Shown here piece after piece: positions 4,841 to 23,045 of a stretch of DNA of 64,000 nt. The position numbers and the translations under genes are program-made. How positions within the stretch are numbered: position 1 is the first letter of the stretch; every line of letters starts with the position of its first letter. Below the pieces are notes generated by a model that did no database searches, was not told the DNA's origin, and worked only from the letters and a program-made list of their open reading frames with translations. The stretch is from an uncultured bacterium (GTDB lineage: Bacteria > Patescibacteriota > Patescibacteriia > Magasanikbacterales > GWA2-37-8), in the NCBI GenBank assembly GCA_937903605.1, contig CALCZC010000025.1, forward strand, positions 3,275 through 67,274, in the 5' to 3' direction.

Positions 4841-7800
4841 ATGGCTAAAAAACCAGATCAAAATTCGCAGTTTGGCGATAGCTACCCGGAGCTAAAAGGT
4901 ATAGAAAAATCATTGTCTGATATTGAAAAAAACAAAGCCGAGGGCAATAAAGAAAAAATCAAACAAGAAATAGAAAATATAACACAGGCCTGCTTGGATA
5001 TTCAAGGTAAAGCCATTGTACTTTGGGAAAAAGCAAAAGGCCAAAAAGAGAAGAACAAGGCTACTGCGTTGATTGATTCTATCGTTGATCTCAAAAAAAC
5101 TGCTGATATGTTTAAGAATACTGACGAAGTAAACACGGAAGAAATCAAAAAGAAGCTAATTAAAATACAAGAAAAAACTAGAAATGTAGGAAATTTAAAT
5201 TCAAACAATAAAAAAGTTGAAATCGGTAATAAAAATAAAGTTAAAGTTGCTGAAGTAATTCCAGAGGCTAGTGCAGAAGACATGGCTAGATATGGTGGTA
5301 AAGGGGAACAAAAACCACCAGAAAAACAAGAAGAAGTTCAAGTAGACAATAATATAGATAGTAATAAAGAAGAAAATGAAAAGAAAGAAAAAGAAGCCTT
5401 GATTGCTGCAGCCAAGAATAAAGAAGATCTTTTTGCGGCTTTGGATAAAATCGGAGAAGTCAAAGGTTCTTCAAGAACATATTCTACGGAAGAAATCAAA
5501 GATGCTATTGAAGCTCTTTTTGCCGGTGTGGTTATTGCTGGAAAAGGCGTTACTAGGGAATTGGGTATTCGTGATAAAGCTGAAGAATTATTAAAAAAAG
5601 AAAAAACACCAAAAAATAAGAAAGATATTATAGAAAAAGCAGAAAATAGAAAAACCATAAACAAAGAAGAATTTAAAAAAATAATAGATGAAATCAAAAC
5701 CGCTCAAGGATTGATTGATTTTTTGAATTCTGCACCAGGTTGGATTGACGCCGGAGATGGATTATTTAATTTTGCGGATGATAAATCTGTTGAAAATAAC
5801 GTTAAAAAAGTTAAAGAGGGTTTTCTTGTAGGTTTTGGCAAAGAATATAAAGCCGGATATTTACCAGAGATTTTAAAAAATAAAATAGAAGAAATTCGAA
5901 ATTCAAAAAAAACCAGATCAAAAAAACCAAATACAGAGACTGTAAAATCAGATAATGATCCAGCTACAGAATCTAAACCAGAATCTGTGCCAACTTCACA
6001 GCCAGAATCTAAATCAGAATCTAAACCGGAGCCTAAACCAACTTCACAGCCAGATTTGGTTCCAAAAGAAAAAATTGGAGCAAGACAAAAAATTAAGATA
6101 GAAAAAATAAATATTAATAAACCTTCAGAAGGTAAGGAAGGAATCAGAATAATTGAAGAAACTACAGTAGAAAAGCCAAAAGCAGATGAAGTTCAGAAAC
6201 CAACTGAAAAAAAGAAGCCATTTGATCGAGCGGCTGCTTTTACTTCCATCATTGATTTTATGGATGAGCGAGAGTTTAAAAAGCAGAAAAAAGAAGTTCG
6301 TGGTGAGATAGATGCAATTCGCATGATGCTCGAAGCAAATAATATAGATTTGTTAAAAAAGTATTTTAAAAATGGAAATCTAGAAGAAGATACAGAAAAT
6401 ATTTTTAGAGCAGACGCTAGATTTAAATGGGTTTTTGAATTGATGGGTGAAACTGAAGAAAAAAAAGTAGAAGATAAGGGTGTTTTAACAGGGGAAAAAG
6501 GCGGTATTGAAAAAATAGGTCCTGCAAAAGCAGAAATTGTTCAAAAAGCTGAAAATGAAAGCAAAAAAGCGCAAGAATATGCGGCAGAAATAAAAAAAGT
6601 TCAAAGCGAAGAAAGTGACGAGAGTAAATTAAAATGGCTTTTAAATGGAGCTTTGGGAATAGGAAAGATGGCGCCTAATATGGTGTATAAAGTTGTAGGT
6701 ACAGTTCTTGGTTTCAAAGCGGGTACCGATCTTGCTATGTATGCAGCTGGAGAAGCTCTAGGTAAAGTTACTGGCAAAGAACATGTTTGGGGTGATTATG
6801 CTGAACACAAAAAAGGCGAAAGAGAAATACCTGAAGAACAAAAAAGATTATATAAATTGTTTGATGAATATGTCGCTTCTTTTCGTCAAGCTAAATTGGA
6901 TAAGATGGAAGGTAAATCGGATAAAGAAGTGACTCAAAATTTAAAGAAGAGCATCGCCGAACTTTATAAATTCATTGATAATAATCGCTATATTGACCCC
7001 AAAGAAAAAAATTTATTTAAGGATCGATTAAATGCTATTGCTAATGATTTTAATCAAGAAAATCAAGAAATAACTGAACAGCAACAAGAAGAAGTAAAAA
7101 AATTGGCCGAAGCTTTTTTGGCAAATAAAATTTCTAAAGTTCAAATAACTAGAGATTGGGCTAACTTTGCTTTAGCTTGTACTCCTTTAACCATGCTTCG
7201 TATCGGAACTATCGCCGGAGGTTTTGCGGCTGAAAGATTTAGAAAAGGGGCTCTGGAATACAATAAAAAAAGTAAAACAGAAATAGAAGTTAAACAAGAA
7301 AGTAAATTTGCACATCGTCTAAAGTTTATGACCATAGATGCGGCGGCAGATTGGGGAGCGGCGATTGCTGGGGGACACACTAGATCCACTCAGAAACTTG
7401 AAAATAGAAGACATGGTGGAGAATATGACTATGATAAACAAGTAGATACATTAAACGAAGTTAAGAAGGAATTAAAAAATAAAACTTACGAGGACTATGT
7501 AGAGGAGTGTAAAGATAAGGGGATAAAAGCCTTGATGGAAGAAAAACAATTTGATGATTGGAAAAAAACCTCTTTGCAAAAATTGACCAAAAAATTAAGT
7601 GGCACAAGTATGGCTAGGGTTGGTGTTTTTAGTAAAGCGGCTGGACAAGCATTTGTTGGTGCCGGCTTAGTTGGATTGGCAATAAATGCTGATTCACTTG
7701 CCAATGTGGAATGGCATGATGCGGCAACCAATTTTTCCAATAATGTTGATAAGGGGTTAGACGCCCTACAATTGAAACCACTTCGTGATTTAGCGGATAG

Positions 7801-10185: not shown

Positions 10186-11718
10186 ATGAACACGTTTATC
10201 GCTCAGCAATCGTTGATCTGGATCCTCCTTTGTCTTTGCCTGATTCTTTTGGCGCTTCATTTCAAAAATGCGATCAAAAAGAAGAAAGAAAAACAAAGAC
10301 AGGATTTGGCTTTGGCAGAAGCCAAGAAAGAAGAAAAGCGTATGCTGGATTTACGAGAAGTATTACCCAAGCTTTTTACCGGCGCGCAACTAGATCATTT
10401 ACGGGCTAGACATTTCATTTTCAATGTCATGACGGCCGAAGAAAGAGACACAATGGCGCAGTGGTTTGAAACTCATGTGGAAATTTTCGGAAAATTTGAT
10501 TTTGAAACAGTCATTTCTGAGGAAAAAAGACCGCTGTTGAGCTTCGATGAATTTCAAGCTCTTTTTATGGTCGTTTTTAACGAAGGTTATTTTGATGCGA
10601 ACAAATTGCCTTTTGGTGGACAGTTGGAAATGTCTCAGAAGCTCAAATGGGCACAAATCCGTTTACGCTCTTCCATGCCGTCCAAAGAAGCAGAGGATGA
10701 AATGGACCGCTTAACCAAACAGGTGCGGTTTAGCCTGGAAGATCTCAACAGAGTGCGTAAATTGGCGGTCGCTGAGTTTGAAGCTCTGCAAAAAAAATCT
10801 CTGGAATTTGACCAGGTATTGGATAGATCGGAAAAAGCGGAAAAAGAGCGCTGGGAACTGTTTGTAGATACCAGGGAATTTTTGAAAGATTGGCCGGAAA
10901 TGAAAAAGGCCCTTTCCTTAGCTCGGTCTGAATACGAAGAACATCTCAAGGAATTGCTTGGTATCAAGAAAATGGGGATAGTTCAGATTCTCAAGGATAT
11001 TGCCGGTCACACCGAGGATCTGAACAAAATCAAAAAAGCCCTCGTTGACATGGAGAAGTGGCGTAAAGATAAGGAGAGTCTTCTGGAAAATAACCTGAGC
11101 AACCATCTGAACAAGATGTTTGAGCAGGCCAAAGACGATGCTGCTTTGCAACGTAAGCAGGCTCTGGATGAAATATCCAAAGTTGTGCATCAAGAGCTTG
11201 ATAAAATGGGTGAAGAAATTGCAGAACTACGTCAGAAGTTTGAAATGGTCCCTTCCGTGGTTGAAAAAAAGAAGGAAGAAGGACAATTCAACTGGTCTGC
11301 GACTATCTATGCTTTTTTTTCCATTTGCCTCATTGTTTTCATCTGGAGAGATCTTTCCAGAGAGAATGACCAATCGATGGTGGTTTTGGATAAGATCGCT
11401 CCGGTGGTGCAAGAAAATAATCTACTTTCCGATTCTGATCCGGAGGAATTTATTACAGTAGAGGAAAACGAGATACCGCCTTTTTATTCCGTTAACGAAG
11501 AAGAAGAAACTTCTTATGTTGAAGAAAAAGAATATTTGGAAAAAGAAACTAATTTTAATGAAGAGCCGAAATTGGTTCCAGTGCCGTTGATAGAAAAAAA
11601 GATAGCAAAAAAAGTTTTGGCTTTATGTCAGGACAAGAAATGCTGTCTTGATAGGTTCGGCAAGGACACTAAGACTTGGCCGCAGGCCATAGAGTGTATG
11701 CGATCAGTAAAAAAGTGA
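10186..11718 (+). CDS. hypothetical bitopic membrane protein with coiled-coil and Cys-rich C-terminus (510 aa)
   Basis: An N-terminal TM (LIWILLCLCLILLALHF), a long coiled-coil/charged region, a second TM (WSATIYAFFSICLIVFIW) and a C-terminal CQDKKCCLDRFG…ECM. GC content is intermediate (~42%). Confidence 0.55.
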   Translation: MNTFIAQQSLIWILLCLCLILLALHFKNAIKKKKEKQRQDLALAEAKKEEKRMLDLREVLPKLFTGAQLDHLRARHFIFNVMTAEERDTMAQWFETHVEIFGKFDFETVISEEKRPLLSFDEFQALFMVVFNEGYFDANKLPFGGQLEMSQKLKWAQIRLRSSMPSKEAEDEMDRLTKQVRFSLEDLNRVRKLAVAEFEALQKKSLEFDQVLDRSEKAEKERWELFVDTREFLKDWPEMKKALSLARSEYEEHLKELLGIKKMGIVQILKDIAGHTEDLNKIKKALVDMEKWRKDKESLLENNLSNHLNKMFEQAKDDAALQRKQALDEISKVVHQELDKMGEEIAELRQKFEMVPSVVEKKKEEGQFNWSATIYAFFSICLIVFIWRDLSRENDQSMVVLDKIAPVVQENNLLSDSDPEEFITVEENEIPPFYSVNEEEETSYVEEKEYLEKETNFNEEPKLVPVPLIEKKIAKKVLALCQDKKCCLDRFGKDTKTWPQAIECMRSVKK

Positions 11719-11734
11719 CTATATAAATTTTACA

Positions 11735-11765
11735 AGGTCGGCCCATAAAGCCGACCTTTTTTATT
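11735..11765 (+). terminator. Rho-independent terminator
   Basis: aaggtcggc-ccataaa-gccgacc followed by ttttttat. Confidence 0.65.
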
Positions 11766-11880: not shown

Positions 11881-11909
11881 TTGACAAAATTGTCTATTTG
11901 TGCTATAAT
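11881..11909 (+). promoter_or_regulatory. sigma70 promoter TTGACA-17-TGTGCTATAAT, with a ~235-nt leader
   Basis: Consensus -35 at 11881-11886 and extended -10 at 11901-11909. It is nearly identical over ~50 nt to the promoter at 19967-20016. A long untranslated leader runs to the ATG at 12146 and contains inverted repeats (tttgatcc…ggtgatcaaa). Confidence 0.6.
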
Positions 11910-12145
11910 ATGTCGTTACAATCAAAAAGGATTTTGATCCACTGTGGAAGAGGGTGATCAAAAGAACTATGAAAATAACTCCTTCCCGGGAGCGTTTTTT
12001 GTTCTTAAAATAAATTTTCTTTTTAACTGCACGGTTTAAAACATAAACCTTGTTAATAAGGAGAAAATTGTTCATTAAAATTAAAGATTTCGTTTATATA
12101 GGAAGTCCAGGATATTAACAACAGGAAAACACCAGGAGGTGTACG

Positions 12146-13129
12146 ATGAAGAAGATGATGCTTTTTGTCGCGATAGTTTTCGCGATGGTTACCGTGACTG
12201 CGCAGCAGAGCGTGTATCCCCTTAATCCCAGTTCCACAATCACGGTGCAGGAATGCATCGATCTGATGAACGCTGCCAAAACCGCCCAGACCAAAACCAC
12301 CGAAATGAAAAAGAAAGTGGAAGGGGTGGTCGCTGCTGTCAAAAAGGGTAACAAGACTCCGGAAGATGGGTCCAAAGAGATCTCCAAAGAGATCAAGGAG
12401 AACCCCGAAGTTCCTCTGGAAAGCAGAAAGGCGGCTAACGAAGTTGCCAGGAAAGTCCTTTATAAAAAGGATCTGACCGAAGCAATGGAAGCTTTCGAGA
12501 CCACTTTCAAGGCGGACCTCGCCAGATTGGAGGAGAAAATCTCCGGTCTTGAGGAAAGGATGGCAAAGCTTGAAGAAAGCGATGCTAAACAGAATGAACG
12601 CCTTGGCAATGTCGAGGAGGTGGTCGCAGATCATGAAAACCGGCTGGATAACCTGGAAGAGGGAATATTCTCCGGTTACTTCGGTGCAAAGTTTCTCACT
12701 TCTTCGGTGTTCGATACTGCCGGTGGTGGCGAACTGGGTATGACCGTGAAAATCGGCAAGCTCAATGGCCCGTTCAAAGCCGACTTCGGCGCAACCCTGT
12801 ATGGTTCGGAGATCAAAAATCTCATAGGAATCGAAGGCAGGGGCATAATCACCTGGATGAGCGACGATTTCAAATTCGTCAAGCTCGGCCTTGGTGGTAT
12901 GGGCGGTGGCATGTTTGATGTCAATAACGCCGGAAGAGTTTCCACTTCCTACGGCGGTGGGCAGTTCGAGATTTCGGCCGTTTACAAACGGTACGAGCTC
13001 TATGCCGATGTCAACCTCGGCGCAAGGGACATGCGCAAGATAAGCGGCCAGCACGAAACCAGTTTCTACTGGGGAGTGATAACTGGCGTCCGCATAAACT
13101 TCGGCGGTCCGTTCGAGACCGTCAAGTAA
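12146..13129 (+). CDS. secreted protein: signal peptide, coiled-coil stalk, C-terminal beta-rich (barrel-like) domain
   Basis: Signal peptide MKKMMLFVAIVFAMVTVTA-QQ. A heptad-like region (LARLEEKISGLEERMAKLEESDAKQNERLGNVEEVVADHENRLDNLEE) is followed by ~170 aa of alternating hydrophobic/Gly-rich strands (GMTVKIGKLNG…YELYADVNLGA…FYWGVITGVRINFGG). GC ~50%; RBS aggagg. Confidence 0.65.
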   Translation: MKKMMLFVAIVFAMVTVTAQQSVYPLNPSSTITVQECIDLMNAAKTAQTKTTEMKKKVEGVVAAVKKGNKTPEDGSKEISKEIKENPEVPLESRKAANEVARKVLYKKDLTEAMEAFETTFKADLARLEEKISGLEERMAKLEESDAKQNERLGNVEEVVADHENRLDNLEEGIFSGYFGAKFLTSSVFDTAGGGELGMTVKIGKLNGPFKADFGATLYGSEIKNLIGIEGRGIITWMSDDFKFVKLGLGGMGGGMFDVNNAGRVSTSYGGGQFEISAVYKRYELYADVNLGARDMRKISGQHETSFYWGVITGVRINFGGPFETVK

Positions 13130-13147
13130 AACGAATATCTTTAAAAC

Positions 13148-13171
13148 GGGAGGGTGAGTTCTTCACCCTCC
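13148..13171 (+). terminator. GC-rich hairpin (possible terminator; no T-run)
   Basis: gggagggtga-gttct-tcaccctcc: a 9-bp stem immediately after the stop at 13129, with no U-tract. Confidence 0.35.
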
Positions 13172-13322
13172 TATCCCAATCCTTGTCAATAACTTGTTTG
13201 TTGACAGAGTAATGGGAAACCATTAACTGCTCTTTGAAAATTTGCTGTAGAAAAAACCCTTTGAGAGGGTTTATATATAGAGGTTACAGGTAGTTTCATA
13301 ACAAACATCTTTGGAGGATGCC

Positions 13323-14174
13323 ATGAAGAACGTACTTTTTTTCTTTGCCGTCGTGTGTGCGATGGTTTTCACCGTTTCCTGCGCCAACTGCACTTACAAT
13401 GAGAAGCTCGGCGCGTGTATCGAAGACATGCCCGAAGAGACCGATGACGCCAAGACCGACATCGACGACGCCAAGACCGACGACGAAAAGTCGGACACCG
13501 ACACTGTCGAAGGTCCCAAACAGGGTGAAGAAGGCGGAAAATGCTTCGCCAACAAGTCCTGTATGGAAGGGCTGGAATGCATTAAGCTCAATGAAGACTA
13601 TATCTGCATCGTAGCAGAAGAAGTCGATGACGACCTCGCAAGCGACGACGAAGAGACCGACGACGAAACCAGCGATGATGACGCAGTCGATCCCGACCTT
13701 GGAAAAGAAGGTCATGGCTGTCTTCCGAACGGAACCTGCAACGAAGGTCTCGTATGTGACCAGGCTTCCGAGAACGAAACCGATGTCTGCGTAAAAGCGG
13801 TCGGCGTAGTCGGAGATAAGGACGGCTCGTGTAAGCCCGATCGGACTTGTAACACAACCTCACTGGTTTGTTACCGTGAAGACTTCGTCTGTCATAATAT
13901 GCCGACCGTCGGCACACGCACCGTTTGCTGGTCGCGTGAACTCAATACCTCACCGGTGCAGGATTCCTGCTCGAAAGAAGGGGGCATCGCTCCCGCGGTA
14001 TTTGAGTATGTCAGCGGGACAAAAACCCCGAACTGCGAAGGACTCGTGAATGTGGACCCGGAGTTCGAATGCGTGCGTATCAACGCAACGGTCGAAACCT
14101 TCCGTAATTCCACACCGGCCGAGCGAGATGACCTCGCCCTCACTTCGTCGTTCTACCTTCCGCCCATAAATTAA
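13323..14174 (+). CDS. acidic Cys-knot secreted lipoprotein, family member 1
   Basis: MKNVLFFFAVVCAMVFTVSC-ANCTYNEKLGACIEDMPEE: a signal peptide ending in Cys, then D/E/T-rich linkers and repeated knots G.C.PN.TC.EGL.C (KCFANKSCMEGLECI; GCLPNGTCNEGLVCD; SCKPDRTCNTTSLVCY). An RBS (ggagga) lies 5 nt before the ATG at 13323. Confidence 0.65.
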   Translation: MKNVLFFFAVVCAMVFTVSCANCTYNEKLGACIEDMPEETDDAKTDIDDAKTDDEKSDTDTVEGPKQGEEGGKCFANKSCMEGLECIKLNEDYICIVAEEVDDDLASDDEETDDETSDDDAVDPDLGKEGHGCLPNGTCNEGLVCDQASENETDVCVKAVGVVGDKDGSCKPDRTCNTTSLVCYREDFVCHNMPTVGTRTVCWSRELNTSPVQDSCSKEGGIAPAVFEYVSGTKTPNCEGLVNVDPEFECVRINATVETFRNSTPAERDDLALTSSFYLPPIN

Positions 14175-14181
14175 CGGCGGA

Positions 14182-14250
14182 CCCCAAGTGCTTTTGGGGT
14201 GACTACAGCAACTTTTACTTGACAGCCGATGCACCGGCTGTCTTTTTTTT
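14182..14250 (+). terminator. tandem hairpins with a strong Rho-independent terminator
   Basis: ccccaa-gtgctt-ttgggg (14182-14199), then gacagccg-atgcac-cggctgtc followed by tttttttt (14221-14250). Confidence 0.7.
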
Positions 14251-14331
14251 ATCAATTTTCCCCTCCTTTTGATAAGAGGAGGCCTGCCTGCCGGTAGGCA
14301 GGACTAGGGTGGAGTCAAGTGGAAAAAATAG

Positions 14332-14360
14332 TTGACAAATTATAAATTTTATGCTACATT
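14332..14360 (+). promoter_or_regulatory. candidate promoter TTGACA-17-TGCTACATT
   Basis: -35 ttgaca at 14332-14337 and a TG-extended -10-like tacatt at 14355-14360, upstream of the EF-hand repeat gene. The -10 is weaker than consensus. Confidence 0.4.
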
Positions 14361-14525
14361 TAGCTGTTAAAAGATTTTCCTTTTTCGGCGCTTTTAATGG
14401 GTTTTTTGTATTTATTTTGAAAGTGCAAAAAAGAGGGAAAGCTCTTTGAAAAATTAGCAACTTTAGATAGGGAGAACAGAATGAAAAACGGTTTTAACAA
14501 CAGCAACTGCACGGAGGTGCACGCA

Positions 14526-17500
14526 ATGAAGAACTACTTCGTTTTTTTCATCGCCGTAGCGATGATGCTCATGCTTGCTTGTGAAAGCAGCAAAGACGGT
14601 CGTGATGGTCGTGATGGTCGCGATGGTATCGCGGGCCAGGACGGCCAGGATGGTCAGGACGGGGAAGATGCTCCGGTTTCGCTTTCGCGCTCCGAAAAAG
14701 CGAGTGAAGAAGAAGCGCGTGAGAACTGTGGCGAGGACATCGTCAACGCCAATTGGATCTGTACCGGCGTGGACGAAAATGAAAATGGCTATCTCGACGA
14801 TTATGAATTCGCCGAATGCCATATTGAATGCGCGGGTGCGCCCGGTCACAGTGCATTGGTTGCAAAAACCGATACCACACAAACCGAGTGTCCCAACGGC
14901 GGATTTCATTTTCTTTCCGGTATTGACACCAACGACAATGGCGAGCTTGATGCCGAAGAAGTTTTGGTTGATGAGCTCGTTTGTAACGGCGTTGATGGTC
15001 AGGATGGTATCGGTGATGTAGTTCGTACCAGTACGGAACCCGCCGGCACCAACTGCCAAAACGGTGGTCAGAAAATCGAGCGTGGTCGCGATCTCAACCG
15101 CAACGGTCAGCTGGATGTGTCCGAGATTACCAGTACAAATTATGTATGCAATGGTATTGACGGTACGAACGGGCATGATGCGAGGACTCGCACCAGTATT
15201 ACCAATGATCCGACATTGTGTGCCAGCGGTTCCGGAGTTATTTTTGAATCCGGTACTGACAACAATGACAACGGAGTGCTCGATGATCCGGAGGTTTCCA
15301 CTACGGATGTTATCTGTGATGGTGCCAACGGTAAGACCACACGCATGATCGTGGCCACAGAACCCGCAGGAACAAACTGCGCAGTCGGCGGTTTTTCCGT
15401 CGTTTATGGCGTAGATGAAAATGACAATGGACTTCTCGATACTACCGAGCAGTCGCCCGCACAGTACATCTGTCATGGACAAGACGGTTACAGTGTCGTG
15501 ATGAGAGTCACGGCTGATATTGCTGTTTGTTCATGGAACGGATACAGGTTGCAGTTCGGTCAGGATCTTGATCGTAATGGTATCTTGGATACCGGCGAGG
15601 AAACATCCGACTTTTATATCTGCAACGGATCCGATGGTCTCATTTCCCGCATCAATATTTCCGACGAGCCCAATGGTGAAAACTGTGCGGCCAGCGGAAA
15701 AAGAATAGATACGGGGATGGACATCAATCGCAACGGCCTGCTTGACAGCACCGAGATTACCACGACCAACTATGTCTGCAACGGTGTGCAGGGTCCGCAG
15801 GGAGTTCGGGGATACAATTCGCTTTCGCGGATAACTCCGGATCTTGGCGGAACAGTCTGCACCTGGGGTGGATATTATTTGGAAGTCGGCACAGACATCA
15901 ATGAAGACTGGATCTTGGATCTGGATGAAGTTGGTCACAGTGCTTATGTCTGCAACGGTATAGATGGTAAGACCTGCAGTTCCATACTCAACGATGAACC
16001 CATCGGTACGAACTGTGCTTACGGCGGAAAAATCGTGTATTCCGGTTGTGACGATGATTACAACGGTGTGCTGGACCTCTACGAGGTCGTTCATACCGAC
16101 TACATCTGTAACGGCGCCACCGGTGCGATAGGTCCTGCCGGGTACAATGCCCTGACCAATATGCAAATAGCGGTCAGCGGTTGTCCCAATGGCGGATATG
16201 TTTTCACTGCCGGCACAGACGCCAATGATGATCAGATCCTTGATCTCACGGAAGTGACGGTCACGAATCTTATCTGTCATGGTGTCAATGGCCAGGATGG
16301 TTATACCTATCGTGTGCAGATGGTTGATGAACCCGTGAGTACAAATTGTGTTCAAGGTGGCAAGGCTATCAGTGGAGGTATAGACAGCAACCGTAATGGT
16401 GTGCTCGATCCTTCCGAAGCCGATGATCCGGTTTACATCTGTCATGGTGCAAACGGACTGCCCGGCGCCAATGGTCAAAACGGTCTAAGTATGGCTTTTG
16501 TCATCAGCGTGGCGAGCATTTCCGAATGCCCGGCCGGTGGTGAGAAGCTGGAGCTTGGATTGGATATTGATGCCAGTGGCGTGCTTGAGCTCGTTGAAGT
16601 TACTAGCACGGTTCTCATCTGCAATGGTCAGAACGGTCAGAACGGTAAAAATTCTTTGACCACTATGACCGTGGAGCCCATAGGTACAAACTGCGCCAAA
16701 GGCGGCCATCTCTTGTTGGTCGGTATTGACGACAATGAAAACGGTATTTTGGATTCCAGTGAAGCCGGGGTTCCGCAGTATGTCTGCCATGGTTTGGATG
16801 GCATCAATGGTGCCAACGGGACCAACGGCCACAATGCTTTGGCGATGGTTACCACATCCACTTTGGGATTCTGTCCCAATGGCGGATCCGAACTGCGGAC
16901 CGGAACTGATCTCAATGATGATGGGGTTTTGAATGCGGGCGAAGTTTCTTCGTTTGCGCTTATCTGTAACGGCCAGAACGGCGCCAATGGTGCCGACGGT
17001 TACAGCTCCAGAACTACGATGATCAGTGAGCCCGCAGGTGCCAATTGCCAGGCCGGAGGATTTTTTATTATCTCCGGTACTGATACCAACAACAACGGCG
17101 CGTTGGATGTTACGGAAATTGAATATTCCGGATACATCTGCAACGGCATAAATGGGAATCCCGGCAGTAATGCCGTAACCCGTGGCCGTCTCGCGCTCGT
17201 TTCTGAATGTCTTAATGGCGGAAGCATCGTGGAAACCGGTACGGATAGTAACAACAATGCTGTACTGGACGATGTGGAAGTCATGACGATAAGTTATCTC
17301 TGCAACGGTGATCCGGGAACAAATGGCCAGGATGGCATTTCCTATCGTGTTATCATCACCAATGAATCCGCTGGAATTAATTGTCAGGCCGGTGGAAAAA
17401 AATTGGAAGGTGGTTACGATACTAACAGGAATAATATCCTGGATCCAGGCGAAATCGTAATGACCGAGTATGTCTGCAACGGCATGGACGGTCAGGATGG

Positions 17501-18296
17501 TCAGGATGGTGTGAACGCACTGCTGCGTATGGAAGATGAACCCGCAGGGGTAAATTGCGAACGCGGTGGCAAAGCAATCCTTTCCGGTTACGATCTGGAT
17601 AGTGATAATTACCTGGATGACACCGAAGTGCTTGCACAGAGTTATCTCTGCAACGCCAAGATCGTTTACTCGGTTGGCGCAGAAAGCACCTATGGTACAT
17701 TCACGGCCTATACAGCCAGCACGGTTTCGTATTGCAAAATATATGGTACGACTCTTGAAGCCGTTGCTTACATTAGCGATGTGGGTAATGCGGCGGTAGT
17801 GGCTACGGATTGGGAAGCGGTGGAGTGTTTCAACACTTCCCATGTCCGGGTGAACATCATTTCTTGTTCCGGTAGCGGTTTTGCGCAGAGCAATGTCGGT
17901 GTGTGCACTTATGACGGATCCGTGTATGCGCGTGGCGGTTTGGGGCAGACTTGTAAGCCCAATCGTGCGTGTGATAGCGGTGTCTGCCGACTTCTGGACA
18001 CGACCTGCATTACCAAACCCTCTCCGGGAGCGGGCGAATACGCTTTTTATTGGGACGGCACTATGAACTCCGGCGGAACCACTTGCGAAAGCTATGGTGG
18101 TAACTACTACTCACCGGTGGTGGGTCAGTGGGATATTTCCGGAGTGCCCAACTGTAATGCCGATCTCGGTGATCCGGTTAGGGGACTCAAGTTCTACACC
18201 GGGTGCATCACGGATCAGAGTGATTTTGATACTCTTGATCCTGCCACTCGTCATTGCACCGGTCCGGCTTATGCCACGGTGCTGGCGCCCTGGTAA
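14526..18296 (+). CDS. giant secreted lipoprotein with ~18 tandem EF-hand-loop repeats and collagen-like GXY runs (about 1257 aa from the preferred start)
   Basis: The preferred start is the MKNYFVFFIAVAMMLMLAC Met at 14526 (RBS ggaggtg); the ORF-track start is 14481. After the Cys come 8 GXY triplets (GRDGRDGRDGIAGQDGQDGQDGED). Then come ~60-aa repeats, each with a canonical 12-residue EF-hand loop D-x-[DN]-x-[DN]-G-x-[LI]-D-x-x-E, for example DTNDNGELDAEE, DLNRNGQLDVSE, DNNDNGVLDDPE, DENDNGLLDTTE and DINRNGLLDSTE. Each repeat is flanked by Y[VI]C[NH]G and EP.GTNC Cys motifs and short GXY runs (CNGVQGPQGVRG, CHGANGLPGANGQNG). The C-terminal ~215 aa is Cys-rich and has a YWD…GGTTCES module. 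Confidence 0.75.
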   Translation: MKNYFVFFIAVAMMLMLACESSKDGRDGRDGRDGIAGQDGQDGQDGEDAPVSLSRSEKASEEEARENCGEDIVNANWICTGVDENENGYLDDYEFAECHIECAGAPGHSALVAKTDTTQTECPNGGFHFLSGIDTNDNGELDAEEVLVDELVCNGVDGQDGIGDVVRTSTEPAGTNCQNGGQKIERGRDLNRNGQLDVSEITSTNYVCNGIDGTNGHDARTRTSITNDPTLCASGSGVIFESGTDNNDNGVLDDPEVSTTDVICDGANGKTTRMIVATEPAGTNCAVGGFSVVYGVDENDNGLLDTTEQSPAQYICHGQDGYSVVMRVTADIAVCSWNGYRLQFGQDLDRNGILDTGEETSDFYICNGSDGLISRINISDEPNGENCAASGKRIDTGMDINRNGLLDSTEITTTNYVCNGVQGPQGVRGYNSLSRITPDLGGTVCTWGGYYLEVGTDINEDWILDLDEVGHSAYVCNGIDGKTCSSILNDEPIGTNCAYGGKIVYSGCDDDYNGVLDLYEVVHTDYICNGATGAIGPAGYNALTNMQIAVSGCPNGGYVFTAGTDANDDQILDLTEVTVTNLICHGVNGQDGYTYRVQMVDEPVSTNCVQGGKAISGGIDSNRNGVLDPSEADDPVYICHGANGLPGANGQNGLSMAFVISVASISECPAGGEKLELGLDIDASGVLELVEVTSTVLICNGQNGQNGKNSLTTMTVEPIGTNCAKGGHLLLVGIDDNENGILDSSEAGVPQYVCHGLDGINGANGTNGHNALAMVTTSTLGFCPNGGSELRTGTDLNDDGVLNAGEVSSFALICNGQNGANGADGYSSRTTMISEPAGANCQAGGFFIISGTDTNNNGALDVTEIEYSGYICNGINGNPGSNAVTRGRLALVSECLNGGSIVETGTDSNNNAVLDDVEVMTISYLCNGDPGTNGQDGISYRVIITNESAGINCQAGGKKLEGGYDTNRNNILDPGEIVMTEYVCNGMDGQDGQDGVNALLRMEDEPAGVNCERGGKAILSGYDLDSDNYLDDTEVLAQSYLCNAKIVYSVGAESTYGTFTAYTASTVSYCKIYGTTLEAVAYISDVGNAAVVATDWEAVECFNTSHVRVNIISCSGSGFAQSNVGVCTYDGSVYARGGLGQTCKPNRACDSGVCRLLDTTCITKPSPGAGEYAFYWDGTMNSGGTTCESYGGNYYSPVVGQWDISGVPNCNADLGDPVRGLKFYTGCITDQSDFDTLDPATRHCTGPAYATVLAPW
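14760..17650 (+). repeat. tandem ~185-195-bp coding repeats (about 18 copies, diverged) within the EF-hand lipoprotein gene
   Basis: Protein-level periodicity of ~60-65 aa seen directly in the translation. The DNA copies are diverged, so these are old repeats. Confidence 0.7.
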
Positions 18297-18315
18297 GTTG
18301 CTTTAGTTCATTTCA

Positions 18316-18343
18316 GGCGGTCCTTCTAGGACCGCCTTTTTTA
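18316..18343 (+). terminator. Rho-independent terminator
   Basis: ggcggtcc-ttct-aggaccgcc followed by tttttt. It is a structural paralog of the terminator at 19876. Confidence 0.7.
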
Positions 18344-18353
18344 TTATAGGTAT

Positions 18354-18382
18354 TTGACATACATTGATGAGTGATATATAAT
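18354..18382 (+). promoter_or_regulatory. sigma70 promoter TTGACA-17-TATAAT
   Basis: -35 ttgaca at 18354-18359 and tataat at 18377-18382. Confidence 0.55.
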
Positions 18383-18447
18383 GGTTTGTTAAAAGTTCTT
18401 TGATATTTTAGACAGATAATAAACCATAATTCATGATGGAGGTTGTC

Positions 18448-19854
18448 ATGAAAAGTGTAGTTTTGACCGCGGTTGCGATCTTTTTTGTTTCCATGTTTTT
18501 CATTTCCGGATGTGCCAACTGTAATTATTCCGAACAGTTGGGAGCGTGTCTTGAAGAGACACCGGATAATGGTGTTGACAAAGAAAATAATGACAATTTT
18601 GTTTCAGACAAAGAAATGACTGATGAAGAAGCCAACAATTTGCCAAAAATCGGTGAAGAAGGCGGAGGGTGTTATCCAAACGATACTTGTGACTCCGGTT
18701 TGAAGTGTATCAAGATCAATGAGAAGATGATGTGTATCAAATTGTCCGAAGAAAAAGATGCAGAGGTTGAAGTTCAGGATTTTGCTGTTGAAAACGAATT
18801 ACCTGATAATGATACTGCATCAAACACTGAGAATGATTCTTACTATCAAGATGACACTGAATCATCTGATTTTGAAAATGAGATACCGGATGTTGATCAT
18901 GTTATCAAATGTGATAAACCGGTTGTAGCCGTAGCCTTCAAAGGACCGCAAGGTTATTGTGGTGGCCAATTTCCTTTTGGCCGTTGGCATGACAATGCGG
19001 TTGTTAAAACCGGACAAGAAGTGACCATAGTAGTTGCCAACCCGTTGGGGACTATTCCGACAGGATACAATCTTGCCAATGAGCTCAAGATAATGGTAAA
19101 AATTTCCCAAGATACGGATTATCTCAACAGTAACTTATCTAATGGATTTTTTATTGGAAACAACGCGCTGACCATGGGTCTTACACCGGGTGGTGGTAAC
19201 AAAACGGAAATGAAATTGATTTTTGCAAAAAAATCATCTTCCATTATGGAGCCACAGAAAGTGATTGTCTCCATAGTTCAAACCACCGGTTATGACGGAT
19301 ATGTTGCCCTTGAGAAAGATAAGTTCGGCGGAGTCTATTGTAGCCCCCATGGAACCTGTCCCGTTTTTAGCGAAGTGATTTTGTGGGTAGTCGACTCTTC
19401 CGATTCCATTCAATGGGGTGAACTGAATCAGAGATGTTTGCCGGATAAAAGATGCTCGCGAAATTATTCCGACCAGTGTGTATCCGGTGACGATCAAGAA
19501 TACTTTTGTACCCAATATGGAAATACTTGTGTTTCCAAACCAAAATTGGAAGTGGATCAGGAATATCGCTATTGGGATGCTACCATAGATTGGTATACAG
19601 GTTCGAACTCCGTTTATAACGGTAAAACCACCTGTGAAAGCAAAAGTTCGAGCAATCGTTTTTGTTATCCACCCGATCCATGGACTTGGAATAACGATAG
19701 TGTTTTACCTGCCTGCCAATGCAGTGACAACTCCTTGTTTAAGCCGGCTGGTGCAATGGGATGCGTTGTTGATAAAGGAAGTCGGTGGGTAGATTGTAAA
19801 AGCGATATTTTTTGGAAATACAATTTTTACTCACCCTCCTATATCTGTCAGTAG
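18448..19854 (+). CDS. acidic Cys-knot secreted lipoprotein, family member 2
   Basis: Preferred start MKSVVLTAVAIFFVSMFFISGC-ANCNYSEQLGACLEETPD (RBS ggaggt). The N-terminal module is near-identical to the 13323 protein. It has the GGGCYPNDTCDSGLKCIKI knot and a C-terminal YRYWDATIDWYTGSNSVYNGKTTCESK module. Confidence 0.7.
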   Translation: MKSVVLTAVAIFFVSMFFISGCANCNYSEQLGACLEETPDNGVDKENNDNFVSDKEMTDEEANNLPKIGEEGGGCYPNDTCDSGLKCIKINEKMMCIKLSEEKDAEVEVQDFAVENELPDNDTASNTENDSYYQDDTESSDFENEIPDVDHVIKCDKPVVAVAFKGPQGYCGGQFPFGRWHDNAVVKTGQEVTIVVANPLGTIPTGYNLANELKIMVKISQDTDYLNSNLSNGFFIGNNALTMGLTPGGGNKTEMKLIFAKKSSSIMEPQKVIVSIVQTTGYDGYVALEKDKFGGVYCSPHGTCPVFSEVILWVVDSSDSIQWGELNQRCLPDKRCSRNYSDQCVSGDDQEYFCTQYGNTCVSKPKLEVDQEYRYWDATIDWYTGSNSVYNGKTTCESKSSSNRFCYPPDPWTWNNDSVLPACQCSDNSLFKPAGAMGCVVDKGSRWVDCKSDIFWKYNFYSPSYICQ

Positions 19855-19875
19855 TTGATAATATAGTTCTTTTTA

Positions 19876-19903
19876 GGTGGCTCTTCTAGAGCCACCTTTT
19901 TTA
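19876..19903 (+). terminator. Rho-independent terminator
   Basis: ggtggctc-ttct-agagccacc followed by tttttt. Confidence 0.7.
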
Positions 19904-19966
19904 TTTAGTAAAAAATGGCTTAAATAAGCAAAATTTATTTTGGCTAAGATTAGCTAAGTTTACCCC

Positions 19967-19995
19967 TTGACAAAATCGTCAAAATGTGCTATAAT
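19967..19995 (+). promoter_or_regulatory. sigma70 promoter TTGACA-17-TGTGCTATAAT, with a ~205-nt leader
   Basis: -35 at 19967-19972 and extended -10 at 19985-19995. The promoter and leader start (…tataatatcacgttacaatcaaaaag) are paralogous to 11881-11930. The leader contains gagagag/ctctctc inverted repeats. Confidence 0.6.
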
Positions 19996-20201
19996 ATCAC
20001 GTTACAATCAAAAAGCGTTGGAGAGAGCGCGGAAGTAATAAAAGGCCAAATTCCGTATCTCTCTTTATCAAAAGAGAGTTTTGTTTTTCTAGCCCATTAT
20101 CCCATCAACTAGATTGATTGGATAAAGGAGAGAAAAAATAAAAATCAGGTTCCTTACAATATAGAGTTAGAGTCCAAAAAACCAATAAGTGGAGGAAAAC
20201 C

Positions 20202-21362
20202 ATGAAAAAGCTCATCACCACGGTTGTGGTCGCCTTCTTTTTCGTCGCCTGTGGCGGCAGCAATGTCAACAATGTCAATGACGAATTCGTCGGCAACGAC
20301 GAAAGCATCAATGATGAAATCACCGACAACGAGACTCCCGATGAGATCGTCAGCGATGACGAGATTAACTGGGATGAAGTCGGCCATGAAGGGGAGCCAT
20401 GCTTCCCGAACAATACTTGTCACGAAGGGCTTAAATGCCGTGACGGCAAGTGTGTGGACGACGGTGGCATGTCCGATACCGGTAAACTCAATCATGAGTG
20501 TTACCCGGACGGTTCATGCAGATCAGACGACATGATCTGTGAGGAAGGAATTTGCGTCGAGCGTAAAGCCGATGCGGATGAAACTCTCACGGATAATGAA
20601 GTCGCGGATGATGTTGTGACTGATGACGAAACTTCGGATGAAATCATTTCCGATGAGGAAGTGGTGGATGAAGAAGTGATGACTGACAACGACATCGTTG
20701 ACAATCCCGTGGTCGACAATGACACGGCCGAAGATCCTCTGACCGGGATTGAAGCGGGACATCCCTGCTACCCCAACAACACCTGCGATAGTATCAAAGG
20801 TCTTGTATGTCAGAACGGTCTCTGTCAGTATCCTGGCACCACGCCGGATGTTGATACTGCGACTCCGGACGAGGACGAAGTCCTTGTCGATGATGAGACA
20901 GTCACTGATTCCGACGTTGCTTCTGATGAAGAAGTGACAGACGATGATGTGCTTCTCACAGAAGAAGAACCGGTGGTTGATAATGATACCACTGAAGTTC
21001 CGGATCAGGACAATCTGCCGTCCGACATCGGAAACAAGGGGCAGAGTTGTTACCCCAACCACACCTGTAATGGTGTGCTGGTCTGTATCGTTGGCACTGA
21101 AATATGTGCTGATGAACCGATTGCTGTCCTCGGACAGTATGAGGGCAGATGTTGGGACTACAAGGATCCTCTTACAGGAAAAACCACCTGTGAAAAAGAG
21201 GGCTGGTACTGGTCTCCTGCTATCTGGGCCGAGACTTCGGACCAATTCCCGCTTTGTATCGGTAGCAGCACCAGACGTCCGTATCTTGCGGAATGTCAGT
21301 TGCAAACCAACAGCGGAGAGCCTCGTAGTTCGGTGTGGTATAAATATCCGACCACGCCGTAA
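20202..21362 (+). CDS. acidic Cys-knot secreted lipoprotein, family member 3
   Basis: MKKLITTVVVAFFFVAC-GGS lipoprotein-like signal. Four knots (EPCFPNNTCHEGLKCRDGKCV; HECYPDGSCRSDDMICEEGICV; HPCYPNNTCDSIKGLVCQNGLCQ; QSCYPNHTCNGVLVCIVGTEICA) are separated by long D/E/T/V-rich linkers. C-terminal module CWDYKDPLTGKTTCEKEGWYW. Confidence 0.7.
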   Translation: MKKLITTVVVAFFFVACGGSNVNNVNDEFVGNDESINDEITDNETPDEIVSDDEINWDEVGHEGEPCFPNNTCHEGLKCRDGKCVDDGGMSDTGKLNHECYPDGSCRSDDMICEEGICVERKADADETLTDNEVADDVVTDDETSDEIISDEEVVDEEVMTDNDIVDNPVVDNDTAEDPLTGIEAGHPCYPNNTCDSIKGLVCQNGLCQYPGTTPDVDTATPDEDEVLVDDETVTDSDVASDEEVTDDDVLLTEEEPVVDNDTTEVPDQDNLPSDIGNKGQSCYPNHTCNGVLVCIVGTEICADEPIAVLGQYEGRCWDYKDPLTGKTTCEKEGWYWSPAIWAETSDQFPLCIGSSTRRPYLAECQLQTNSGEPRSSVWYKYPTTP

Positions 21363-21641
21363 ATTCTAACTCTAGGATTTAACATAATGGACCGGGCACC
21401 TGACTTTACGTCAAGGCCCCGGTCCAATCTTTATATGAGATTGTCACATTCTCTCCTGATGACGATCTCAGATAATATCAAAAAACCTTTCACTTTTCGT
21501 GAGGGGTTTTTTGTTTTATAAGAGGGGAAAGTGTGATATAATATATTTAAATAATAAATTCAAAATCTCAAATCCCAAATTATTTGGAACTTGTGATTTT
21601 TAATTTGTAATTTATTTTAAATATTAATATTTAAAATCTCT

Positions 21642-22964
21642 ATGTTTATTCGAAAAATTGTTTTTTTAACGGCAGTGTTTTTATTTATGCCGTTGGTTGT
21701 TTCTGCTGAAACAACTTCTACCACGTCAACGGTAGAAACTATTGTGTTCAAGGTTTTTAACGCTGATTGTGAAAATATCTCCGAAGGCCTTTTGGCCAAT
21801 AGTTGTTATGTCAAAAAAGCCGCTGATAATCTGGATTGTTCGTATTGTGAAAAAATAAATTGGTTTGGCGGGCGTGTTTCTTGCTGTGTCGGTGTGATAA
21901 ACAGTTTCACTCGAGAGGGATTGTGTGACAATTTGACCGAAACAAAATTGAAAGAAAAATGTTTATTACATTTGGCAGTCAAAACCAAAAACGGAGCTTT
22001 GTGTAAACAAATAAAAGATAAAAATGAAAATTTTGCTTGTCGAGCTGAGATAGCCAAGCAAGCTACTGATTTGAAGCAGTGCGATAAAATGAATAAAATA
22101 GAAAAAGATTATTGCCTTTTGAAATTTGCAGAAACGCAAAAGAATGAAAAAATTTGCGCCAAAATAGGTGAACGCGGAGTTAAAAGATTTTGTTACAATA
22201 AATTGGCGGTGTTAAAAAACAATGAAAAGCTTTGTCCTTTAACTGCTAATGCGGATAAATGTTATTTGGCAGTAGCGGAAAGTAAAAAAGATGGAGCGCT
22301 TTGCGCTAAAATCAAAGACGGGTCTTTGGTTGGGTATTGTTTGGACAGAGTGGCAATAGTTAAAAAAGATTATAATGCTTGCAATTTGATAAAAGGAAAT
22401 TATAAATTTGATTGTATTTTTGATGTTGGTAAAGCAAAAGGTAGCGCCATGTCTTGTGAAAAAATAACGGATAAAGAAAAAAATTATACATGTGTTACGC
22501 ATTTTGCGACAGAACGTGAAGATTTGAGTTATTGTAATTATCTGAAAGATAAAACTAAACTTACTGCATGTACCGACGAAGTAGCAAAAACCATAAATGC
22601 CAGAGTTCAAGACGCTCAACGGATATCCGATTTAAAATCTATGCAAACGGCTTTGGAACTTTATTTTATGGATAATAATGAATATCCAGAAGGAAAAGAT
22701 ATTGTTCTTGGTGGTTCAAATGGAGTTTGTTTGATAAATACCGGAATTGAAGGAGAAAATTGGACCTGTCCGGAAAATCCGACAGTTGTTTATTTTAATA
22801 GTATTCCCGCAGACCCTATTAACACTGGTATTTATACTTATACCTATACCAAAACCTCTGGAGTCTCACCTTGTTATCATATTATTGCCAGATTTGAAAC
22901 AAATTATGGCGAATATAAGGCCGGGCCGTTTTATGTAAGTTGTGAAGGTGGAATTTTTCAGTAA
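21642..22964 (+). CDS. secreted Cys-repeat protein with a C-terminal type IV pilin / T2SS pseudopilin-like domain
   Basis: Signal peptide MFIRKIVFLTAVFLFMPLVVSA. About 7 tandem ~35-aa repeats carry spaced Cys (…K.GALC.KIKD….C….A). The C-terminus (ARVQDAQRISDLKSMQTALELYFMDNNEYPEG……CPENP) resembles the pilin-like globular domain (RDA.R..DL……LE.Y..DNG.YP). Confidence 0.6.
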   Translation: MFIRKIVFLTAVFLFMPLVVSAETTSTTSTVETIVFKVFNADCENISEGLLANSCYVKKAADNLDCSYCEKINWFGGRVSCCVGVINSFTREGLCDNLTETKLKEKCLLHLAVKTKNGALCKQIKDKNENFACRAEIAKQATDLKQCDKMNKIEKDYCLLKFAETQKNEKICAKIGERGVKRFCYNKLAVLKNNEKLCPLTANADKCYLAVAESKKDGALCAKIKDGSLVGYCLDRVAIVKKDYNACNLIKGNYKFDCIFDVGKAKGSAMSCEKITDKEKNYTCVTHFATEREDLSYCNYLKDKTKLTACTDEVAKTINARVQDAQRISDLKSMQTALELYFMDNNEYPEGKDIVLGGSNGVCLINTGIEGENWTCPENPTVVYFNSIPADPINTGIYTYTYTKTSGVSPCYHIIARFETNYGEYKAGPFYVSCEGGIFQ

Positions 22965-23016: not shown

Positions 23017-23045
23017 TTGATTTTTAGCGAAAAATGTGCTATAAT
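23017..23045 (+). promoter_or_regulatory. sigma70 promoter TTGATT-17-TGTGCTATAAT
   Basis: -35 at 23017-23022 and extended -10 at 23035-23045. The ORF-track ATG at 23034 lies inside the promoter, so the true start is 23055. Confidence 0.55.

Follow-up and report, generated by a model that had tools for sequence, protein, structure and literature searches.

Stretches of bacterial DNA whose GC content and codon usage are atypical for their genome are routinely taken as traces of horizontal transfer, and the genomic islands or 'alien' genes treated in the Lawrence-Ochman concept of amelioration are recognised by a sharp, gene-delimited jump in GC and in GC at third codon positions (GC3). A second kind of system, the highly expressed S-layer and surface genes such as slpA of Lactobacillus, is built from monocistronic units with a consensus promoter, a strong Shine-Dalgarno (SD) site, a long conserved leader and a strong terminator, and prefers codons ending in C (TTC, ATC, TAC, AAC). 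Here, a locus resembling both is described. It comprises five genes, g1 to g5 (the block, ~9.5 kb), within a 64-kb stretch of contig CALCZC010000025.1 (the window), flanked by g0 on the left and f1 on the right, and would be resident in a small clade within Candidatus Magasanikbacteria (Patescibacteria, or candidate phyla radiation, CPR) from activated-sludge-type samples. With a probability of roughly 0.55, the block is a surface-protein locus that has been inherited vertically, is confined to its clade and is highly expressed, and its GC3-rich coding is kept by selection. Among the origins proposed in an earlier note on this DNA, a native, highly expressed and codon-distinct locus is the one favoured by the evidence, namely substitutional equilibrium, a codon-specific shift and expression signals.

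In 1-kb windows, GC content is 0.30-0.38 outside the block and 0.47-0.52 at ~12.1-18.3 kb and again at 20.2-21.4 kb. The backbone has a GC3 of 0.302 ± 0.043 (35 genes, range 0.24-0.44), from which g1 (GC 0.51, GC3 0.62), g2 (0.54, 0.62), g3 (0.51, 0.52) and g5 (0.51, 0.54) deviate with z = 5.1-7.4 (Mann-Whitney p = 2e-4). The fourth gene, g4, shows no GC enrichment (GC 0.41, GC3 0.39, z = 1.9), and g0 lies in between (GC 0.41, GC3 0.44, z = 3.2), close to the intermediate ~42% GC read for it in the earlier note. As the spacers within the block are AT-rich (GC 0.30-0.40; backbone spacers 0.24-0.30), the anomaly is limited to coding sequence, where it concerns synonymous sites above all. The switch from ~33% to ~50% GC that the earlier note had described is thus borne out by windowed GC and GC3 for four of the five genes, but it does not extend to g4 or to the spacers.

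Three relatives were compared with the window: L014, L013, which is the most distant, and L019, a 7.4-kb contig that carries g3 and g5 with the spacer between them, a portion of g2, and the 26 initial codons of the gene that follows g5. The codon-by-codon shift is identical in the window, L014 and L013, where the block exceeds the backbone in TTC (0.62-0.86 vs 0.13-0.15), ATC (0.57-0.74 vs 0.16-0.18), CTC (0.32-0.37 vs ~0.06), CCC (0.37-0.52 vs ~0.10), CAG (0.70-0.85 vs 0.20-0.25) and AAG (0.45-0.62 vs ~0.12), and TTA is nearly lost (~0 vs 0.18-0.30). For the window by itself, the values are 0.85 vs 0.21 for CAG, 0.45 vs 0.12 for AAG and 0 vs 0.31 for TTA. The description of the block as rich in C-ending codons therefore captures the rise of TTC, ATC, CTC and CCC, but misses that the G-ending CAG and AAG rise as well and that TTA falls. 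Not every GC-rich codon takes part: GGC and CCC are 2-5 fold up, whereas GGG (0.07-0.12 vs 0.10-0.16 in the backbone) and CCG (0.41-0.45 vs 0.32-0.59) are not, and the strongest depletion is seen in A-ending codons. Selection on particular codons fits this pattern better than plain GC pressure or GC-biased gene conversion, because plain GC forces should raise all G- and C-ending codons and should not stop at the borders of coding sequences.

The block is present in three diverged lineages (g5 86% identical in L014 and 60% in L013; g3 94% identical in L019). In L014 and L013 the gene order is g0-g1-g2-g3-g5-f1-Wzy-GT4-GHL15-PALP-MurC, to which the window adds g4 between g3 and g5, and L019 agrees with this order over its short span, in which the flanking genes are not covered. 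The compositional contrast is also shared, with a GC3 of 0.51-0.66 in the block vs 0.28-0.37 in the flanks of L014, and an even larger difference than that of the window in L013 (0.63-0.81 vs 0.32-0.42). In both relatives the spacers have a GC of 0.32-0.44 and g0 is again intermediate (GC3 0.44-0.47). Between the window and L013, amino acid identity is 48-76% in the block and 68-85% in the flanks, and synonymous divergence (dS) ranges from 1.45 to saturated in block and flanks alike. No empty site was found among the relatives, which are thinly sampled, and a metagenome scan with f1 for such sites returned three L014-type loci only.

The depth of this comparison bears on whether the composition is a relic or an equilibrium. 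At fourfold degenerate sites, identity above chance between the window and L013 amounts to 7-33% in the block and 11-19% in the flanks. With 70-90% of such sites turned over, simple neutral decay would be expected to leave a donor signal below ~0.1. Yet GC at these sites is 0.54-0.70 in the block of the window and 0.69-0.88 in that of L013, with 0.32-0.41 and 0.43-0.57 in the respective flanks, so an offset of ~+0.25 moves along with the backbone. Substitutions at third positions were further counted in the shallow trio of the window, L014 and L019 (g3 pairwise dS 0.21-0.24), with branches assigned by majority rule. The 153 GC>AT and 137 AT>GC changes are balanced on all three branches and imply an equilibrium GC3 of 0.49, the current value being 0.52. 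Under neutral decay toward 0.28-0.33, 69-74% of the changes should be GC>AT, a model that is rejected (p < 2e-8). Since the changes are balanced, the locus is considered to be at substitutional equilibrium and not ameliorating. Polarising changes with L013 as outgroup instead gave 130 GC>AT to 52 AT>GC in the block, an apparent amelioration that was discarded: the flanks mirror it (112:148), and both counts are artefactual because a saturated outgroup imposes its own composition.

The second line of evidence comes from the expression signals, the coordinates of which are collected in Table 1. The 64 kb contain three perfect TTGACA-N17-TATAAT sequences, against an expectation of 0.03, and these stand ahead of g1, g4 and g5 and nowhere else. 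The view that each gene has its own promoter thus stands for these three and, with a near-consensus match, for g3, but a promoter scan upstream of g2 gave no consensus match. Likewise, the hairpin terminators attributed to every gene are found, in strong form, after g2, g3, g4 and g5, but the hairpin after g1 lacks a T-tract. As g2 has no consensus promoter and the g1 hairpin no T-run, g1 and g2 may be co-transcribed; alternatively, the transcript may be processed at the hairpin. The strong ribosome-binding sites reported earlier are confirmed in full, with GGAGG placed 5-8 nucleotides (nt) ahead of the ATG in all five genes (5 nt in g2). Among 37 genes of the backbone, 3 have such a 5-mer (Fisher p = 6.6e-5), and the positions of the SD sites fix 13323, 14526 and 18448 as the true starts of g2, g3 and g4. 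Many backbone genes have no recognisable SD site or carry a -10 box immediately ahead of the start codon, which suggests that leaderless or SD-independent initiation is the default of this genome.

Table 1 Genes and predicted expression signals of the block and its left flank (window coordinates).
Feature	Position	Strand	Description
g0	10186..11718	+	510-amino-acid (aa) membrane and coiled-coil protein; partial SD site GGGAG; no Pfam match
Terminator after g0	11734..11758	+	Intrinsic; 9-bp stem with 6 GC pairs, T-run; left border
g1 promoter	11881..11909	+	Perfect sigma-70/sigma-A type, TTGACA-17-TATAAT, -16 TGTG; kept in L014 and L013
g1 5' leader	11916..12145	+	~230 nt; terminator-like hairpin 11979-11992; middle part deleted in L013
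g1	12146..13129	+	327 aa, predicted secreted: signal peptide, helical domain, long coiled coil, modelled C-terminal 8-stranded beta-barrel (residues 175-319)
Hairpin after g1	13149..13171	+	GC-rich, no T-tract
g2	13323..14174	+	283-aa acidic lipoprotein-like protein, Cys 7.1%; signal peptide end ...VSC/ANC
Terminator after g2	14221..14242	+	Intrinsic
g3 promoter	14332..14360	+	Near-consensus TTGACA-17-TGcTACATT, 10/12 plus extended -10
g3	14526..18296	+	1256-aa lipoprotein-like protein (...LAC/ESS); start given by gene callers, 14481
Terminator after g3	18315..18337	+	Intrinsic; copy, at 81% identity, of the g4 terminator; stem changes compensatory (repeat family D12)
g4 promoter	18354..18382	+	Perfect consensus
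g4	18448..19854	+	468-aa Cys-rich lipoprotein-like paralogue (...SGC/ANC)
Terminator after g4	19875..19897	+	Intrinsic
g5 promoter	19967..19995	+	Perfect (TTGACAAAATCGTCAAAATGTGCTATAAT); hexamers invariant in L014, L019 and L013
g5 5' leader	20002..20201	+	~200 nt, conserved
g5	20202..21362	+	386-aa lipoprotein-like protein (...FVAC/GGS)
Terminator after g5	21479..21513	+	Right border; backbone composition resumes

The promoters of g1 and g5, together with the first ~30 transcribed nt, are copies of each other (repeat family D10). The g5 promoter and leader are nearly invariant in the window, L014 and L019, and L013 matches them at 88% over 198 nt. Within this leader, a hairpin (GGAGAGAGC...UCUCUCU; fold z = -3.3) overlaps and competes with a terminator-like hairpin and U-run at 20059-20078, and the leader may, judged from its predicted folds, be an unclassified attenuator or mRNA stabiliser. 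For both the g1 and the g5 leader, no Rfam family was matched at gathering score, and only chance-level matches appeared at E <= 1. Conservation is not restricted to leaders, as the window and L013 share 69-84% identity in the spacers of the block (84% in the g2-g3 spacer), while their identity at fourfold sites is 36-52%. The segments at 18304-18345 and 19864-19905 that hold the g3 and g4 terminators are 81% identical copies. Among the backbone starts, 34 of 37 lack the 5-mer SD site (e.g., 23055, 4841, 21642 and 38794), and TGnTATAAT is found ~9 nt before the ATG of some backbone genes, as at 23026-23045 ahead of 23055.

All five products carry a signal peptide or a lipobox, as the earlier note had stated, but being Cys-rich (4.2-7.1%) and acidic applies to g2-g5 and not to g1, which has a single Cys and nearly as many basic as acidic residues (D+E 14.1%, K+R 13.1%). 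The lipobox calls for g2-g5 were made by eye from the sequence pattern, and the lipobox Cys of these signal peptides is conserved in the orthologues. In the AlphaFold2 model of g1 (mean predicted local distance difference test score, pLDDT, 65), the helical domain is confident and eight beta-strands at residues 175-319 adopt an antiparallel barrel fold; on this model, the barrel is OmpA/NspA-like and of the outer-membrane type. No outer-membrane protein (OMP) family was matched by g1 in Pfam (E <= 10) or NCBIfam (E <= 0.1). Of six g1 sequences, three end in ...RYHF or ...RYRF, and the protein of the window ends in ...RINF followed by 8 further residues. CPR bacteria are generally described as having neither an outer membrane nor machinery for beta-barrel assembly (BAM).

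The largest product, g3, contains 8 collagen-like G-X-Y triplets and ~17 DUF7151 repeats, each 50-60 aa long, ends in a Cys domain, and matches Pfam PF23657 in 17 stretches (E = 1e-209, 678.8 bits against a cut-off of 27.2). Each repeat has 2 Cys and an EF-hand-like loop, D-x-N-x-N-G-x-L-D-x-x-E, which 16 loops match and which, by this motif, probably binds calcium. The repeats are 60-75% identical at the DNA level, a degree of identity by which concerted evolution of the repeats was ruled out as a source of GC. Homologues of g3 outside the clade share 33-40% identity, those with a name coming from Myxococcota, Polyangiaceae, Alcanivorax, Ekhidna, Pelomonas, Ferrimonas and Nitrospirae.

The products of g2, g4 and g5 are paralogous and combine D/E-rich linkers with small 4-Cys modules, which are probably knotted by disulfides. 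In g5, four such modules (G-x-x-C-[YF]-P-N-x-T-C-x-x-G-L-x-C...C) are separated by D/E-rich linkers and followed by the C-terminal Cys domain common to g3, g4 and g5; its AlphaFold2 model is poor (pLDDT 43). Orthologues of g2 are 79% identical in L014 and 53% in L013. The N-terminus of g4 is 41% identical to g2, and g4 is absent, without remnant, from L013, L014 and L019; from this distribution and its own signals, g4 resembles a cassette of promoter, gene and terminator that was inserted in the present lineage alone. The earlier note had suggested looking for relatives of the five proteins, in Myxococcota among other groups, and the outcome is divided: g3 has DUF7151 relatives in Myxococcota and Proteobacteria, while no homologues outside the clade were found for g1, g2, g4, g5 or the shared C-terminal domain in sets of 5.8 billion and 1.84 billion proteins. 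In the former set, g1 and g5 each have five homologue clusters (60-94% identity for g5), and among the 1.84 billion representative proteins, the C-terminal domain retrieved only the clade's own families, g2-like proteins and a protein of contig L023, discussed below. When a donor or a wider family was sought for g1, g5 and the C-terminal domain, the search returned only the clade itself and weak matches to the 4-Cys module. No relatives of g5 were found in GTDB representative genomes; a betaproteobacterial metagenome-assembled genome (MAG) that came up as a carrier in the GTDB genome scan was rejected as a spurious 28-residue match. Literature searches on the sample accessions, on DUF7151, on OMPs in Patescibacteria and on CPR codon usage found nothing relevant.

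Taken together, the block would consist of genes that are lined up in a row, transcribed separately and encode envelope and surface proteins, and in which consensus promoters (-35, -16 TRTG and -10), GGAGG sites, long leaders and terminators would act as signals for maximal output. Its GC3-rich coding would be held by selection on synonymous sites, through translation efficiency, mRNA stability or both in very abundant transcripts, and the proteins would form an abundant outer surface or adhesion layer of a presumed episymbiont. We infer that the composition of the block is no waning imprint left by a donor genome. It is possible that g3, and perhaps g1, entered the ancestor of the clade long ago from a GC-rich diderm, but ancient transfer by itself cannot account for the composition seen today.

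Several points weigh against a resident locus shaped by selection for high output. Slow growth and small numbers of rRNA and tRNA genes characterise CPR bacteria, from which weak translational selection is expected, and a GC3 offset of 0.25-0.45 is far above usual codon adaptation in AT-rich genomes. The ClpB-like, LepA and transketolase genes do not show the codon shift of the block. In addition, g4 has a perfect promoter and SD site, yet a backbone-like GC3 of 0.39, so GC-rich codons do not follow from strong signals by themselves. The barrel of g1 is modelled with moderate confidence (pLDDT 55-74), the closest homologue of g3 outside the clade lies on a contig of 61% GC, and both the DUF7151 relatives and the OMP-type fold suggest phyla that are diderm and often rich in GC. 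In the comparison of the window with L014, dS is 0.21-0.80 in the block vs mostly higher values in the flanks (0.39-1.73). Moreover, the g2 protein of L019 (L019:3-527) is 100% identical to that of the window, while the adjoining g3 is only 94% identical; this mosaic and the low dS of the block show homologous recombination among close lineages, which leaves room for GC-biased gene conversion.

The same package of signals is also met outside the block. On the window's own contig, ~8.5 kb past the right end of the window (L021:18441-19020), an isolated 152-aa gene with a GC of 0.57 and a GC3 of 0.86 lies in AT-rich surroundings and has its own terminators, a GAGG SD site and a promoter (TTGACAAAATAGCCAAAATGTGCTAATCT) with the -35, spacer and -16 TGTG motif of the g1/g5 type; no signal peptide was predicted for it, and no Pfam, PHROG or PDB match was found. 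A contig of a distant relative from another metagenome (L023:1-918; JGI 3300033521) opens with TTGACAAAAAGGTAAAAATGTGCTATAAT. Its perfect promoter (TTGACA-17-TGTGCTATAAT) leads into an AT-rich leader, an SD site and GC-rich open reading frames (ORFs), and the contig codes for a 137-aa lipoprotein with distant homology to the C-terminal domain of g5. As both carry the package, the class of GC3-rich genes with consensus promoters is wider than the block. On L023, a 37-aa hydrophobic mini-ORF precedes the lipoprotein gene, which is flanked by a 35-nt repeat (cagcgtctccggcgaacacgct...). Within the window, the ankyrin-repeat gene at 59627-60256 has the highest GC3 of the backbone (0.44) and a perfect GGAGG SD site, which would fit either membership in this class, if the class is graded, or a foreign origin. 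It could be speculated, as a bold and rather doubtful extension, that such genes amount to a 'second dialect', in which dispersed monocistronic cassettes with a maximal sigma-A promoter, a structured leader, an SD site and GC3-rich recoding form a co-regulated, high-output surface regulon within an AT-rich genome whose genes are otherwise SD-less or leaderless, and that the barrel resides in an unrecognised outer layer or in the membrane of the host cell during episymbiosis. If true, a stable intragenomic split in GC3 would be an adaptive CPR feature and not a trace of transfer.

Among the rival explanations, a constraint at the RNA or DNA level apart from translation is unlikely, though slightly less so than the others. 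Here, the composition would serve to avoid AU-rich RNase sites or internal promoters and terminators, or to preserve structures for mRNA localisation or for coupling to secretion. The near elimination of TTA and A-ending codons would suit such a constraint, as would the long conserved leaders, whose stable hairpins suggest control of mRNA stability, the RNase J-type beta-CASP gene present in the window, and a contrast too large for ordinary codon adaptation. However, g4 shows no bias, the favouring of certain C-ending codons looks like an effect of translation, and the explanation overlaps with selection on a resident high-expression locus, as both invoke selection for high yield.

A horizontally acquired island from a GC-rich donor, e.g., a myxococcal one, that is still ameliorating and whose GC is a decaying relic with no force maintaining it, is improbable. 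Such an origin draws on the strong compositional contrast, on the relatives of g3 in Myxococcota, Proteobacteria and Bacteroidota with the nearest in a GC-rich setting, on the outer-membrane-type fold of g1, which is unexpected in a CPR bacterium, on SD sites atypical for the backbone, and on the lower GC3 of the lineage-specific g4; the GC>AT excess obtained with the L013 outgroup would also belong here had it not been judged an artefact. Yet searches at the block found no integrase, transposase, tRNA gene or flanking direct repeat, as already noticed for its borders, and no phage-family (PHROGs) or plasmid similarity. The block occupies the same site in the same order in L014 and L013, with L019 consistent as far as it reaches, and it has diverged much as its flanks have. 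Its spacers are AT-rich and conserved, and g1, g2, g4, g5 and the C-terminal domain have no homologues beyond the clade. A GC3 excess of 0.25-0.45 persists after 70-90% synonymous turnover, where neutral decay would leave less than ~0.06-0.1, and the flux in the shallow trio is balanced. The horizontally acquired cassette of the earlier note is accordingly not supported as a recent event, in view of the missing mobility marks, the shared site and the equilibrium, while an ancient transfer stays plausible for g3 and g1.

Equally improbable is a recombination hotspot at a surface-antigen locus, where GC-biased gene conversion would drive GC up irrespective of expression. The distances of g3 among the window, L014 and L019 are star-like and g5 of L019 differs more than g3, which, with the identical g2, gives the mosaic expected of exchange; the low dS of the block relative to most flanks in the comparison with L014, a GC3 excess that is at equilibrium and follows backbone GC, and the slightly GC-richer spacers of the block all agree with it. 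Against this stands the codon specificity of the shift, with GGG and CCG flat where GGC and CCC rise and A-ending codons most depleted. The effect also ends at the borders of coding sequences, although the spacers are exchanged together with the genes, and g4 lies mid-block without being GC-rich. Finally, the isolated 152-aa gene has the high GC3 noted above, and the g3 repeats show no concerted evolution.

A chimeric assembly or binning artefact joining DNA of two organisms, for which nothing but the abrupt change in composition speaks, is refuted by junction-spanning contigs from nine samples and two pipelines, by synteny kept in three diverged relatives, by the similar coverage of split contigs and by host-like AT-rich spacers between the GC-rich genes. 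The contigs in question, at least 7 of them independent, come from SRR3330210/11/12 and ERZ724081-86 as assembled in Logan and ENA/SPAdes. By blastn, the left junction is matched at 100% in SRR3330210, SRR3330212, ERZ724082 and ERZ724084, at 99.99% in ERZ724083 and at 99.89% in ERZ724081, and the right junction at 100% in SRR3330210, SRR3330211, ERZ724082 and ERZ724084 and at 99.98% in ERZ724086. Exact-protein look-up located the same genes on many contigs, and block and backbone stand together on single contigs of 41-348 kb. In ERZ724084, where the block is split, the two contigs have coverages of 6.7x and 7.8x. The chimeric joint entertained in the earlier note thus falls to independent contigs across both junctions and to the same gene order in relatives.

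As for the host, LepA of the window falls in a 90% identity cluster with MDO9509799.1, which is labelled Candidatus Magasanikbacteria (Patescibacteria/Parcubacteria group), and one related contig is from an activated-sludge metagenome. The backbone encodes MurB, MurC, MurJ, MraZ/RsmH, SmpB, transfer-messenger RNA (tmRNA), LepA, RecJ and a polysaccharide cluster, and the 10 kb to the right of the window add ClpB-like, FtsW and sugar-nucleotide genes. Genes for ribosomal proteins, EF-Tu or tRNAs were found neither in the window nor in this extension. The tmRNA (473-867) specifies a 22-residue tag (ANLFSKAKAMFGNTMSFAPAMA), with SmpB adjoining at 987-1466. Just upstream of g0, 4841-10009 encodes a 1722-aa Lys/Glu-rich protein with predicted membrane segments and no family match, a 1678-aa counterpart of which runs into the L014 locus. 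On the other side, f1 (21642-22964, 440 aa) has 28 regularly spaced Cys and a weak type-II-secretion/pilin G-like C-terminus, and its dS to L014 is low (0.39) despite a backbone-like GC3.

The block provides a counter-example to the routine reading of atypical GC and codon usage, being a stable resident at equilibrium, and calls for caution in island prediction, in MAG binning and in decontamination. It also reveals what are probably the major surface proteins in one clade of Magasanikbacteria, as candidate host-attachment factors including an unexpected OMP-like barrel, and its signature of promoter, leader, SD site and codons can be searched for genome-wide. How a reduced and presumably slow-growing genome sustains a GC3 offset of 0.25-0.45 in few genes is a puzzle.

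Compared with described systems, the block shares with genomic islands the sharp, gene-delimited jump in GC and GC3, surface products and, through DUF7151, relatives in other phyla. It differs from them in the lack of tRNA genes, integrase and repeats, in occupying the same site in L014 and L013, in having mostly no outside homologues, in host-like spacers and in a composition that is at equilibrium after synonymous saturation and not decaying. With highly expressed surface genes such as slpA it has in common the architecture outlined at the beginning, the preference for NNC codons and a reduced dS in g3, but the size of the GC3 offset, the reduced CPR genome and the preference for the G-ending CAG and AAG set it apart. 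While the barrel of g1 recalls those of OmpA, NspA and OmpW and the OmpM/Slp tethers of diderm Firmicutes, Thermus and Cyanobacteria, in which an N-terminal domain and a coiled coil precede the barrel, g1 has no Pfam or NCBIfam OMP match and no S-layer homology (SLH) domain, its model is of moderate confidence, and its host group is regarded as lacking an outer membrane and BAM. Finally, g3 resembles the DUF7151 (PF23657) proteins of Myxococcota, Proteobacteria and Bacteroidota in its 17 repeats above threshold, lipoprotein-type N-terminus, G-X-Y stretches and EF-hand-like loops (as in P0049 and P0052), and differs from them by an identity of 33-40%, by a Cys end domain known only from the clade and by its place in an AT-rich CPR genome.

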